This document shows, one piece after another, positions 1,522-4,098 of a DNA stretch of 13,232 bases; position 1 is the first letter of the stretch, and every line of letters begins with the position of its first letter. The position numbers were made by a program, and so were the translations under genes. The notes under the pieces are model-generated. The model was not told the DNA's origin. It searched no databases and worked only from the letters and a program-made list of their open reading frames with translations. The DNA is from a virus. The stretch is from UHGV virus genome UHGV-0297100. One strand, written 5' to 3'.

Positions 1522-2021
1522 TGCTGACCCCACAAACAGATTTCACGCTCAATCTCACGACGAGTCATGAGACCTTTCCATTGCTTACCGCCAGCATATG
1601 TCCAGCGACGTAGCTGATCACATGCGCCTTTGATATCGCCCTGGTTTATTTTGCGAAGAAGCGTCGATGTTCTGAAATTGCCAGCACCCACGTTGTAAAC
1701 GAATGAGTAAAGAGCGCCGCGCATTGTTTCCGGTATATCGACTTTGATGTACGGGTTAATTTGTCTGGCGACCGTGGCAAGGTCTTTATTCAGGAGAGCT
1801 TTGCATTCTGCTTCGGTATACGTTTTACCGAGCATGATGTCTTTTCCGGTGTGTCCGTGACATACAGTCCATACACCAACAATATCTTTGTATGGTATGT
1901 AGCTGACACCTTCCAGACCATCGTTACCACTTGGTCCAGTGATTAACACAGATGCTATAGCAATAGCCCCGCCACTTATCGCCGCTATTACGCTATTTCG
2001 TAGTGCCGGTGACATTGCCAT
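1518..2021 (-). CDS. R: Phage endolysin (lysozyme), phage-21-type with an N-terminal signal-anchor-release (SAR) segment
   Basis: N-terminal weakly hydrophobic Gly/Ala-rich segment [17 protein letters not shown] followed by a lysozyme-like domain ([25 protein letters not shown]...). It sits between the holin and Rz and overlaps the holin 3' end. The exact start (M1 or M3) is unresolved. Confidence 0.9.
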
Positions 2022-2196
2022 TCAATCTGTCCTCGCGCTCTTTGCGCTTGTAGTACCAGTTGATGCCAAATGTGCCGACAGTACAAAGAATACCAATGAT
2101 GACAGCCCAGTCATTCAGGGAGAGAATGCCACCCATCGCAGTCAGTCCTCCGAAGCTGTAACTGAACCATTCTCTGATTTTGTCCATACGGTACAT
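1993..2196 (-). CDS. S: Class II holin (two transmembrane segments) with a dual-start motif
   Basis: 67 aa with two hydrophobic segments and a charged C-terminus ([10 protein letters not shown]), immediately upstream of and overlapping the endolysin. The N-terminus MYRMDK has two in-frame Met codons separated by a basic residue, like lambda S107/S105. Confidence 0.8.
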
Positions 2197-2687
2197 GCTC
2201 TACCCCTTCATTGAGGGGATTTGCTCTATTTAATTAGGAATAAGGTCGATTACTGATAGAACAAATCCAGGCTACTGTGTTTAGTAATCAGATTTGTTCG
2301 TGACCGATATGCACGGGCAAAACGGCAGGAGGTTGTTAGCGCAACCTCTTGCTACCCGCTTTCACGAAGGTCATGTGTAGAAGGCCGCAGCGTAACTATC
2401 ACCGATGAATTCATGATAGCCAGTGGCTACGGCTCAGTTTGGATTGTGGCGACCGGTGCTGATCTCCGGTTTGCTGCAACTGCCTACAGCGGGCTACGTG
2501 GCCACACCGAATCCAGCGAAAGATTCTTGCCCTTACACATCAGCCTGTGCATTCACCACAACGATAAGAGCACTGCGCGGCACCTTTCACCAATTCCGCG
2601 AGGTCTGCGGGTTCAATGCTCTTACCTGTTGTGCAAATAAAAAAGCCACCGTTGCAACTTAAGAGTCACTAACGGCAGCTTACATCT

Positions 2688-3200
2688 TTAAACGGTATGA
2701 TATTTCATTCTGGCGGCCTCAAAAGCCGCAGCGGCAAGTTCGGCAGTATCATGGTATCCAAGGTTAATACACTTTCCAGACGCATTAATTCTTGCTCTCC
2801 ATTTCCCGTACTTAGCATCCCAAGACACGCCACGGTATCCAGATTTATTATTCTTCTGAATTTTCCTGTTCTGCATATTTTCGGAATGAGTGACAAGACG
2901 AAGATTTGATATCCGGTTATCTGTTCTTACCCTGTTGATGTGATCAATAAAACCATCGGGCATGGTGCCATAAACAATCAACCATGCCAGTCTGTGAGCA
3001 GGGTATGCTTTACCATTAATCATAATCATTAAATACCCATCAGAATTTATTGATGAGCATTTCTTGAAAGCAAAACGAGAGTTCCATGTCAAAGTGGTCC
3101 TCTCTCTTCCCCGCCTCCATCTCCAGTGAAAGTCGCCTGATGATGGATTGTAATCAACAACAGAAAGCACCATTTCTGGCGTTAATTTTATTTCTTTCAT
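2688..3200 (-). CDS. HNH endonuclease with a C-terminal AP2-type DNA-binding domain (homing-endonuclease-like moron)
   Basis: HNH motif region HRLAWLIVYGTMPDGFIDHINRVRTDNRISNLRLVTHSENMQN, followed by an AP2-like segment SGYRGVSWDAKYGKWRARINASGKCINLGYHDTAELAAAAFEAA. RBS AAGG upstream of ATGAAAGAAATA. Appears AT-richer than its neighbours by eye. Confidence 0.8.
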   Translation of the reverse strand: MKEIKLTPEMVLSVVDYNPSSGDFHWRWRRGRERTTLTWNSRFAFKKCSSINSDGYLMIMINGKAYPAHRLAWLIVYGTMPDGFIDHINRVRTDNRISNLRLVTHSENMQNRKIQKNNKSGYRGVSWDAKYGKWRARINASGKCINLGYHDTAELAAAAFEAARMKYHTV

Positions 3201-3320
3201 CGCTTTACCTTAGGGATAGAGCCTGTTCGCGTAGATATGACAGCCAAGAGCGGAGCGATGTTTCCACCACCATATCTCAGGCCCATATCACTAAGACTCT
3301 TGTTTTGATTGCACGCGAAT

Positions 3321-3347
3321 GCAAAAAAGCCCACAGGAGGTGGGCTT
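3321..3347 (-). terminator. Rho-independent terminator, candidate tR' downstream of the late promoter
   Basis: Minus strand reads GCCCAC-CTCCT-GTGGGC (6 bp GC-rich stem) followed by TTTTTTGC. It lies about 50-70 nt downstream of the candidate pR' and upstream of the HNH gene. Confidence 0.6.
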
Positions 3348-3387
3348 GTGATGGTTGCTGAATGCAAAAGCAGCAGCATATGTGAAT

Positions 3388-3417
3388 ATTATGGCTAAAT
3401 GGCTAATTGCATGTCAA
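3388..3417 (-). promoter_or_regulatory. Candidate late promoter pR' overlapping the 3' end of Q
   Basis: Minus strand TTGACA (3417..3412), an 18-nt spacer, then CATAAT (3393..3388). The Q stop codon TAG (3397..3395) lies inside the spacer. The position just downstream of Q matches lambdoid pR'/qut architecture. Confidence 0.5.
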
Positions 3418-3913
3418 GGCTTTTAACAGCAACATGCTTAACTTTCTCAACACGTTTACGCATTTTGAAAGCATTTTGCATTGGTTGGTACAAAACAAAT
3501 AACGACGCTTTCAGGATGTCGTCAATTTCGTTTCTACAGGTTGCCAGTGAAGGTTTTCTCCATCCCTCGCCACCACGTCCACACATCTTGCGTGGCTTTG
3601 CAGTCGCGTGATAGTAGGATGCAATTGCTCGCTTAGATGAACCATGAGCGTAGTAGCTGAGGAGGATGCCAAAGGCTTTCTTGTCAATGTACATGACGGA
3701 ATCGACGACCTGAGAAATCAACATTCCATCATCATCATTACACATTGGCCTTGTCATAACTCTTCCCGGCTCTACGCTCTCCATGAACTTCGCTATTACG
3801 CTGCTCATGCGCTTTTCCAGACGACCTGAATAAACCCATGCGCCCCACAGCTCAAGCCAGCCATTCAGCCAATCGTGCTGTTCTTTGGTGAGGTTTAGCT
3901 CTCTTATGCTCAT
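3395..3913 (-). CDS. Q: Late-gene antiterminator Q (Phage_antitermQ family)
   Basis: Motifs WLELWGAWVYSG...TRPMCNDDDGMLISQVV match the conserved ERWGAW...SRP.C.DDD pattern of QuuD-type Q proteins. It directly follows ninH, and its start overlaps the ninH stop (ATGA). Confidence 0.8.
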   Translation of the reverse strand: MSIRELNLTKEQHDWLNGWLELWGAWVYSGRLEKRMSSVIAKFMESVEPGRVMTRPMCNDDDGMLISQVVDSVMYIDKKAFGILLSYYAHGSSKRAIASYYHATAKPRKMCGRGGEGWRKPSLATCRNEIDDILKASLFVLYQPMQNAFKMRKRVEKVKHVAVKSLDMQLAI

Positions 3914-4098
3914 CGTCTTCCCTTTTTTCCTGGCGTGACCATCAGGACGCCGTTAACTATTACATGACGCTCGCCTTTGCTGTCTCGGTTGTACTTGAGC
4001 ACTGTTCCTCTTGCGCAGGAAAGCATCCTTGCCACTTCGGTCTGATTGCCTCGTGTCTGGATAAGAAGCTCTGGTATCGTTTGAATTGTGGCGTTCAT
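3910..4098 (-). CDS. ninH: NinH-like small DNA-binding protein
   Basis: 62 aa with IPELLIQTRGNQTEVARMLSCARGTVLKYNRDSKGERHVIVNGVLMV, resembling lambda NinH (IPDMLVEAYGNQTEVARRLKCSRGTVRKY...). Overlaps the rusA stop. Confidence 0.8.
   Translation of the reverse strand: MNATIQTIPELLIQTRGNQTEVARMLSCARGTVLKYNRDSKGERHVIVNGVLMVTPGKKGRR

Follow-up and report, generated by a model that had tools for sequence, protein, structure and literature searches.

In phage 21, the Q-binding element of the late promoter pR' consists of two direct repeats (TGAGCA) located between the -35 and -10 hexamers, and the C:G base pairs at positions -21 and -13 are both required for antitermination (PMC6606751). The two subsites span 8 bp each, and the region from -40 to -1 together with the pause element is enough to obtain Q-loaded complexes (bioRxiv 10.1101/651190). 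A -10-like element in the initial transcribed region gives rise to a sigma-dependent pause, where Q is loaded (PMC6606751); this pause lies 18 bp downstream of the start (bioRxiv 10.1101/2022.01.24.477500). Base contacts are made by residues H95, A124, R127 and R128 of the phage 21 protein, 21Q (PMC6606751). The Q protein of phage lambda, which has no homology to Q21, binds as a monomer at a non-repeat site, needs NusA and is loaded in a different way (PMC9388147).

Here, a stretch of 13,232 nucleotides from a virus genome (UHGV-0297100), referred to as the window, was compared with these systems. All features described below are on the minus strand, unless stated otherwise. The comparison makes it very probable that the region under study controls the late genes of a lambdoid prophage whose Q protein is of the phage 21 family. 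Judged from its sequence the element is of a known kind, a Q21-type cassette of pR', Q-binding element, pause element and terminator (tR'), to which an HNH endonuclease gene positioned between two tR' alleles is a modest addition. A prophage of E. coli strain 317 contains a 961-nt segment of the window with 100% identity; its gene order is nin genes, Q, HNH, holin, RrrD lysozyme and lysis protein, with the terminase further on. The late lysis genes of the window were assigned from Pfam and from the PGAP annotation of the identical E. coli 317 prophage as holin (2196-1993), lysozyme (2021-1518) and Rz (1533-1054).

The Q gene (3913-3395) encodes an antiterminator of 172 residues that belongs to the Q21 family (Pfam Phage_antitermQ, 1.3e-25) and represents the Sf6-type allele. 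A phmmer search of the PDB yields the 21Q structures 6JNX and 6P18 as its sole relatives (E 2e-91, residues 1-162). The window Q is thus a homolog of 21Q, with a sequence identity of 85%. Residues 1-102 are nearly identical in the two proteins, and all but two of the 25 differences are located within residues 95-158, in the DNA-binding half. They include two of the base-contacting residues, H95R and R128N, such that the window Q combines R95 with N128. In addition, the open reading frame has a C-terminal extension of 10 residues compared to 21Q, which reads through the -35 hexamer and the upstream Q-binding subsite. The locus does not represent a pR'/6S unit of the lambda (Q-lambda) type, as its Q protein matches only Q21 structures in the PDB. 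The label 'lambda 6S-like' given to the predicted transcript in the first-pass annotation is therefore appropriate as a functional analogy, but not as a statement of homology, Q21 and Q-lambda being unrelated (PMC9388147). On the plus strand, inside Q, a CII-type site TTGCGTGGCTTTGC (3588-3601) and a -10 hexamer TAGGAT (3615-3620) are observed, which align with the annotated paQ of phage 21.

At the 3' end of Q, and on the same strand, a sigma-70 promoter is found (3417-3388), with the -35 hexamer TTGACA at 3417-3412 and the -10 hexamer CATAAT at 3393-3388. Both hexamers were located by a consensus scan and align to the annotated -35 hexamer and to the -10 hexamer AACACT of phage 21 pR', respectively. 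They are separated by a spacer of 18 nt that contains the Q stop codon TAG (3397-3395), and the strand reads ...aaaagccTTGACAtgcaattagccatTTAGcCATAATattcacaTATGCTgctgcttttgcattcagcaaccatcacAAGCCCACctcctGTGGGCTTTTTTgcattc... across this region. The near-consensus promoter straddling the Q stop codon that was proposed in the first-pass annotation is thus present in all its parts. With 11 of 12 positions matching, the TTGACA/CATAAT pair is the top sigma-70 match of the whole window. However, a match of 11/12 or better is also reached in 28% of dinucleotide shuffles of the window, for which reason the motif was rejected as stand-alone evidence, and promoter-like sites are not enriched (15 found versus 22 expected). 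The late-control feature is taken as real because it is conserved and homologous to a known system, not because of its motif score. Across 88 related loci with recombining flanks the promoter itself is invariant, and it aligns with the experimentally defined pR' of phage 21. The comparison with phage 21 that had been suggested at the outset extends over the -35 hexamer, the upstream and downstream Q-binding subsites (QBEu and QBEd), the -10 hexamer, the start and the pause element, and it backs the proposal that a late promoter is embedded in the 3' end of Q by homology to a characterised system. Downstream of the promoter, between 3388 and 2690 on the minus strand, the scan gave no promoter-like site at 9/12 or better. 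A late transcript start inside 2200-2690, which had been considered as a scenario that would disprove the proposal, likewise finds no support, as this interval begins with the old tR' and contains no promoter-like site on the minus strand.

Alignment to the annotated start of phage 21 places the predicted transcription start at an A residue 7 nt past the -10 hexamer, at position 3381; the discriminator and start read ATTCGC-A in phage 21 and ATTCAC-A in the window. In the register of the phage 21 sequence TAAGCTG, a -10-like, putative sigma-dependent pause element TATGCTG occupies positions +2 to +8 (3380-3374). Its core TATGCT (+2 to +7, 3380-3375) conforms to the pattern TAnnnT, which is present at all 61 family loci defined below. 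The 18-nt promoter spacer is one base longer than that of phage 21 (tgc versus tc ahead of the repeats). This extra base is located upstream of the Q-binding element, and therefore the geometry of the Q-binding element relative to the pause element is unchanged.

The 64-nt leader is predicted to fold with a free energy of -21.5 kcal/mol, which is better than that of shuffled sequences (z = -2.96, 1/200). The leader contains a small hairpin at 3378-3356 (dG -8.2 kcal/mol). It was rejected as a functional element, since in natural variants its inner stem is broken or wobbled, with no covariation, and it possibly has no role. An open reading frame of 60 residues at 3379-3197 and two on the plus strand (3086-3361 and 3399-3611) have no Pfam matches and were treated as spurious. 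A scan of 1900-4000 against Rfam with a permissive E-value gave no family, only two sub-threshold chance matches, and ARAGORN detected no tRNA in the window. The window lacks the genes for tRNA-Asn and tRNA-Thr, which are located downstream of tR' in phage 21, in Sf6 and in some prophages with an HNH gene (L008).

The predicted Q-binding element consists of two direct repeats of 8 bp between the -35 and -10 hexamers. The upstream subsite QBEu, AATTAGCC (3408-3401), aligns to ATTGAGCA of phage 21, and the downstream subsite QBEd, ATTTAGCC (3400-3393), aligns to AATGAGCA, with the geometry described for that phage (PMC6606751). QBEd includes the Q stop codon, and the -10 hexamer starts with its final base. 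Given a start at 3381, the C:G pairs of the repeats are located at -21 in QBEu (3402) and at -13 in QBEd (3394). Among 88 relatives, 22 have TTATCC in the upstream subsite. The qut and pause elements had been expected between 3350 and 3390; this expectation is half right, because the pause element does lie in that interval, whereas the Q-binding element is found inside the promoter, at 3408-3393.

The assignment of these repeats as the Q site was examined on a family set of 61 loci. Seven of them are phage or prophage relatives of Q21, including that of a Vibrio phage, and the other 54 were taken from species-representative genomes, with a spread from Escherichia to Xenorhabdus, Proteus and Arsenophonus. 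All 61 loci show a -35 hexamer, two repeats spaced by 8 bp, a -10 hexamer and a TAnnnT motif 11-12 nt past the downstream repeat. Residues 95, 124 and 128 of the Q protein, which correspond to base-contacting residues of 21Q, covary with the repeats, while R127 is near-invariant (R at 60 of 61 loci). An asparagine at position 128 is accompanied by T at repeat position 2 in 17/17 loci, and an arginine by G in 41/43, the remaining two having A. Arginine at position 95 occurs with C at repeat position 6 in 17/18 loci, and any other residue with A in 43/43; these counts include one locus (L146) that was re-registered by eye, the script totals without it being 17/17 for N/T, 40/43 for R/G, 17/18 for R95/C and 42/43 for non-R95/A. 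Proteins with R124 are associated with TGGACA-type repeats in seven of ten cases, the others having TGGCCA, TAGCCA and TGGCAC. All four combinations of residues 95 and 128 occur, each with the matching repeat (TTAGCC, TTAGCA, TGAGCC or TGAGCA), and in the window R95 and N128 are paired with TTAGCC repeats. Several N128 proteins are more closely related to R128 proteins than to each other; one of them (L115) shows 86% identity to its closest R128 relative and 70% to its closest N128 relative. The switches between N and R therefore recur, within several clades. As a comparative result, the covariation independently supports the spacer repeats as the site of Q binding, and it suggests that the window Q and 21Q differ in DNA specificity.

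The first terminator, tR'(A), was identified by consensus scan and folding at 3347-3323, and consists of a stem of 8 bp with a 5-nt loop, followed by a T6 run. The hairpin AAGCCCAC-CUCCU-GUGGGCUU (3347-3327) has a predicted free energy of -11.9 kcal/mol, and the T6 run occupies 3328-3323. The stem is short, with six G-C and two A-U pairs, and the U run is interrupted after six residues (UUUUUUGCAUU). No T run follows the hairpin on the plus strand. The distance from the predicted start at 3381 to the end of the T run amounts to 59 nt, corresponding to a predicted terminated RNA of about 55-60 nt. The GC-rich hairpin with T-tract and its position some 60 nt downstream, both noted in the first-pass annotation, are thereby confirmed. 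Terminator-like matches in general are mildly enriched in the window (20 versus 13.3 expected). In the phage HK629 record (JQ182735) the equivalent of tR'(A) is annotated as a rho-independent terminator. The tR' of phage 21, in which the hairpin GCUGCCGUU...AACGGUGGC with its U run starts from inside the pause element, cannot be aligned with tR'(A).

At three loci lacking the HNH gene (L005, L027 and L038) and in a Trabulsiella guamensis prophage (L146), tR'(A) is the only terminator between pR' and the holin gene. In the former three the T run is joined straight to (A/G)TTTGCACAACAGG, the sequence that follows the second terminator in the window. The Trabulsiella prophage, which also lacks the HNH gene, has a Q protein with 44% identity to 21Q and TGAGCA repeats; its leader and terminator are homologous to the tR'(A) type, with a different loop. 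Alignment of four leader sequences of this A type shows that the homology ends at the T run. The stem is invariant, and the loop occurs in three versions (CTCCT, CGCCT and CTGAT). Because only the loop varies and there are no compensatory base changes, support for the structure of tR'(A) comes from its invariance and context rather than from covariation. On these comparative grounds tR'(A) appears to be a real tR', an alternative leader allele distinct from the tR' of phage 21. In the alignments the A-type leader extends from the -10 region as far as the T run, and it is best described as an old stand-alone tR' module that recombines separately from Q and the Q-binding element.

The second terminator, tR'(B), is together with its pause element an intact copy of the phage 21/Sf6 type and is identical to the tR' of phage 21, Sf6 and HK75 in an alignment; in their records (OL657228, AF547987 and HM173637) the 21-type terminator is annotated as tR'. 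Its sequence TAAGCTGCCGTTAGTGACTCTTAAGTTGCAACGGTGGCTTTTTT (2682-2639) begins 5 nt past the stop codon of the HNH gene and comprises a remnant of a pause element (TAAGCTG, 2682-2676), a hairpin (2679-2645, dG -17.4 kcal/mol) and a T6 run (2644-2639). The cassette thus contains two intrinsic terminators by sequence, at 3347-3323 and 2682-2639, and Q would therefore have to read through both in tandem. That a short terminated RNA is made and that Q is needed to reach the HNH and lysis genes, as had been proposed, is supported by homology to the phage 21 system, with two tandem terminators rather than one. In Sf6, HK75 and VE-T10 the -10 hexamer is separated from the old pause element by 7 nt, which in the window are replaced by a block of 704 nt (3387-2684). 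Leader classes were counted on 80 IMG/VR loci and six others that share the promoter of the window, where the flanking sequence sufficed. A B-type leader without HNH gene is found at 59 loci. The A-type leader with tR'(A) and HNH gene is found at 20, of which 18 continue with tR'(B) at exactly +711, and at three loci the A-type leader with tR'(A) is present without HNH gene. Among 50,697 phage records the window leader occurs only in HK629, over the whole stretch, and in PhiR12 phages, at least to 3150. It is present, in whole or in part, in 41 of 5,426 complete E. coli genomes, 39 of which carry the full cassette.

The gene between the two terminators (3200-2688) encodes a protein of 170 residues with an HNH_3 and an AP2 domain (Pfam, 2e-18 and 1.6e-8, respectively). 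It thus combines a nuclease and a DNA-binding domain in an intergenic open reading frame of its own, as is characteristic of free-standing homing endonucleases, and it is present or absent at one exact site among near-identical prophages. While 39 E. coli genomes contain the gene, many more join the same Q and pR' directly to tR'(B). Relatives with up to 45% identity are encoded by thousands of phages, often in several copies per genome, and are annotated as homing endonucleases; above 60% identity, no relatives were found outside this one site, HK629 carrying the gene at the same site. From these sequence features, the best interpretation of the gene is a free-standing endonuclease gene of the homing type. 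With tR'(A) before it and tR'(B) right after it, it is sandwiched between two tR' alleles. The minus-strand consensus scan revealed no promoter-like site upstream of the gene. Without such a site of its own, and with a terminator on each side, the gene should be silent in the lysogen and be transcribed only by Q-modified polymerase. Both of its junctions are clean and each of the two leader alleles also occurs alone, and the gene may have come together with the A-type leader into a leader of the B type, or together with tR'(B) into one of the A type. A literature search did not retrieve a description of an HNH gene inside a lambdoid Q-antiterminated leader, and searches on HK629 and PhiR12 gave nothing relevant.

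The association of the HNH gene with the A-type leader raises the question whether the hairpin at 3347-3323 is an insulator travelling with the HNH cassette, or the end of early transcription through Q, with 2682-2639 as the true tR'. The HNH gene nearly always accompanies the A-type leader and terminator in E. coli (39 of 41 genomes; 20 of 24 A-type loci), the block 3387-2684 replaces the 7 nt of the common HNH-less arrangement (Sf6, HK75 and VE-T10), and free-standing endonuclease genes are commonly kept silent. This explanation is nevertheless unlikely. The three HNH-less loci described above rely on tR'(A) alone ahead of the holin gene, the Trabulsiella prophage likewise has a homologous leader and terminator but no HNH gene, although its Q protein is only distantly related to 21Q, and the A-type leader bears a correctly placed pause element. 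Moreover, the two explanations are not mutually exclusive, as a terminator 35-59 nt past the start of pR' acts as a tR' whatever its origin.

A second alternative places the late promoter downstream of tR'(A), at about 3235-3230, just upstream of the HNH gene, with TTGACA/CATAAT not being pR'. Record JQ182735 of HK629 indeed annotates a 'putative late promoter pR'' at the equivalent of this position, after the terminator. The annotated hexamer, however, is TCTACG and has no -35 partner, in a minus-strand interval (3388-2690) devoid of promoter-like sites at 9/12 or better, and neither Q-binding repeats nor a pause element are found beside it. In Sf6 and HK75, which carry the same Q allele, pR' is annotated at the TTGACA/CATAAT site, which is homologous to phage 21 pR'. 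A promoter at 3235-3230 was consequently rejected for want of a promoter-like match and is considered highly improbable; the pR' annotation in the HK629 GenBank record is, from this comparison, probably misplaced. The probability that the promoter-like and terminator-like motifs of the window are chance matches with no regulatory role is smaller still. The proportion of shuffled windows reaching 11/12 and the only mild enrichment of terminator-like matches would agree with chance, but the homology, base for base, to a promoter whose Q-binding and pause elements have been characterised, the invariance of the promoter at 88 loci amid recombining flanks, the covariation of Q protein and DNA repeats, and the placement of the terminator exactly at a module boundary are such that the comparative data effectively refute it.

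For the Q21-type cassette with pR' at 3417-3388 and two tR' alleles, the position of the start, the pause, the efficiency of termination and the dependence on Q are inferred by homology with phage 21, and the following course of events may be envisaged. RNA polymerase with sigma-70 would initiate constitutively at pR', with a start at about 3381. Region 2 of sigma would then re-bind to TATGCT at +2 to +7 and the complex would pause a few bases further on (+18 in phage 21). Two Q protomers bound to the tandem 8-bp repeats (3408-3393) could dock onto the paused complex, one of them becoming a nozzle at the RNA exit channel that blocks hairpin formation. Without Q, the transcript would stop at 3347-3323 with a length of about 55-60 nt, and leak-through transcription would be halted at 2682-2639. 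With Q, both terminators would be read through, resulting in expression of the HNH gene and then of holin, lysozyme and Rz.

A more far-reaching joint reading, to which we assign an even balance of belief and doubt, is that the Q21 family uses a two-position code, in which N or R at residue 128 reads T or G at repeat position 2, and R or another amino acid at residue 95 reads C or A at position 6, coupled in this cassette with a homing-type HNH gene that lies between two tR' alleles, is silent in the lysogen and is expressed only under Q antitermination. If the code is true, the window Q (R95, N128; TTAGCC) belongs to a class orthogonal to that of 21Q (H95, R128; TGAGCA), and at least four interchangeable pairs of Q and Q-binding element would be predictable and engineerable from sequence. 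The covariation between the repeats and the contact residues of 21Q, which extends over Enterobacterales and Vibrio, provides this antiterminator family with a specificity rule that can be tested, and is the most reusable by-product of the analysis. The late leader is further seen to be modular, in that the part from the -10 hexamer or start to the T run recombines apart from the pair of Q and Q-binding element, and an endonuclease gene can sit between two terminators within a Q-controlled leader. For annotation purposes, the analysis fixes where the predicted pR', its Q-binding and pause elements and both terminators are located in a prophage type of about 40 complete E. coli genomes, including that of the EPEC strain E2348/69.

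Among the known systems closest to the cassette is the late control region of phage 21 (OL657228; PDB entries 6P18, 6P19 and 6JNX). The two share a homologous Q protein, the TTGACA -35 hexamer, two 8-bp repeats with C:G pairs at -21 and -13, the ATTC(G/A)CA discriminator and start, the pause element at +2 to +8 and an intrinsic terminator ahead of the lysis genes, and the window also harbours the phage 21 tR' in intact form, at 2682-2639. Differences are observed in the repeats (TGAGCA in phage 21, TTAGCC in the window), the spacer (17 versus 18 nt) and the -10 hexamer (AACACT versus CATAAT, the latter with 5/6 matches to the consensus). The Q reading frame of phage 21 is 10 codons shorter, whereas that of the window runs on over the promoter. 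The phage 21 terminator extends from +3 to +50, while the first terminator of the window extends from +35 to +59 and is non-homologous, and the position of the phage 21 tRNA genes after tR' is taken by the HNH gene.

The pR'-qut-tR'/6S unit of lambda follows the same logic, with a constitutive promoter, a sigma-dependent promoter-proximal pause (+16/+17 in lambda), a Q site between the -35 and -10 hexamers and a short terminated RNA, but has no sequence similarity to the unit of the window. The lambda leader RNA has a length of about 194 nt. The HNH gene resembles the free-standing phage HNH homing genes, such as the heg genes of T5-like phages and gene 3.8 of T7, in being of the HNH_3 plus AP2 type, intergenic, polymorphic at a precise site and, as known here from the sequence, flanked by terminators; it differs from them in that its close relatives (above 60%) occur only at this one site. 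Sf6, HK75 and CUS-3 have the same Q allele and a B-type leader; in these phages, and in many others, the Q gene, promoter and Q-binding element are 97-98% identical to those of the window up to the last base of CATAAT. Past this hexamer they continue with TAGAAGG-TAAGCTGCCGTTAG..., i.e. with TAAGCTG and a 21-type tR', where the window has 704 nt instead of 7, and the Sf6 and HK75 records (AF547987 and HM173637) place pR' at the TTGACA/CATAAT site, in agreement with the assignment made here. In HK629 (JQ182735), unlike in the window, the upstream Q-binding subsite is TTATCC and pR' is annotated after the terminator; HK629 and 39 E. coli prophages, among them those of strains 317 and E2348/69, nevertheless share the whole arrangement of the window, with an identity of 97.8-100%.

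In the window the late leader contains a tandem pair of terminators. An intact copy of the pause element and tR′ of the phage 21/Sf6 type (TAAGCTGCCGTTAGTGACTCTTAAGTTGCAACGGTGGCTTTTTT) is located at 2639-2682 on the minus strand, 5 nt beyond the stop codon of the HNH gene. It was overlooked by a simple terminator scan because the stem is long and imperfect. Compared with the common Sf6/HK75 arrangement, 7 nt (TAGAAGG) are swapped for a 704-nt block (2684-3387, minus strand), consisting of the A-type leader with its terminator and the HNH_3+AP2 gene. Of 5,426 complete E. coli genomes, 41 carry the block, EPEC E2348/69 among them; in 39 it is full-length. Alleles lacking the HNH gene are found both with only the A-type leader and with only the B-type leader, the latter being the 21/Sf6-type leader with tR′.

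In a degraded prophage of E. coli NCTC9112 (L006, 1501-1755), pR′, the A-type leader and the terminator are arranged as in the window, but the HNH gene is broken off after approximately 20 codons, beyond which the DNA is unrelated. The PhiR12 phages have the region in common with the window to at least 3150, and none of the PhiR12 records contains a match to the HNH protein at 60% identity or more.

The leader also includes a 60-codon ORF (3197-3379, minus strand), which starts with an ATG inside the pause element, at +3 of the predicted transcript, and spans the terminator; its 3′ end overlaps the start codon of the HNH gene in an ATGA. No Pfam family matches this ORF, which is probably spurious. 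In phage HK629 (JQ182735), GenBank places a ‘putative late promoter pR′’ downstream of the terminator, at 3216-3221 (about 3235-3230 in the window). The annotated hexamer, TCTACG, shows no promoter-like match and is therefore probably a misannotation.

Among 88 close relatives the downstream Q-binding subsite is invariant, whereas the upstream subsite (3401-3408, minus strand) reads TTATCC rather than TTAGCC in 22, HK629 and HK75 among them (loci L001, L004, L096, L097 and others). This pattern fits the reported low affinity of the upstream subsite. The repeats (3393-3408 in the window, minus strand) were compared with Q residues 95 and 128, whose codons lie at about 3631-3629 and 3532-3530 in the window; the comparison took in loci L095-L148. 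Over 61 loci of the Q21 family, N at residue 128 goes with T at repeat position 2 and R with G, and R at residue 95 goes with C at position 6 and any other residue with A. The two pairings together have three exceptions. Where residue 124 is an arginine, TGGACA-type repeats are found in 7 of 10 cases; the Q protein of L106 (K128/E124) is accompanied by TTACCC repeats and that of L133 (Q127) by TGGCAC repeats. Together, these pairings of residues and bases resemble a recognition code of the Q21 family.

Inside Q, on the opposite strand, a CII-type site (TTGCGTGGCTTTGC, 3588-3601, plus strand) and a −10 hexamer TAGGAT (3615-3620, plus strand) align with the annotated paQ promoter of phage 21. 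In phage 21, in Sf6 and in certain prophages with the HNH gene (L008), tR′ is followed by tRNA-Asn and tRNA-Thr; in the window, 2450-2636 (minus strand) holds no tRNA but approximately 190 nt of unrelated sequence, and homology to the other phages is regained near 2447 (aactgagccgtagccactggcta). The Q allele of the window lacks the stop codon of 21Q and continues for 10 extra codons (VKSLDMQLAI; region 3395-3427, minus strand), which cross the −35 element and the upstream Q-binding subsite, terminating at a TAG within the downstream TTAGCC repeat. The promoter that is wholly intergenic in phage 21 is overlapped by Q in the window.
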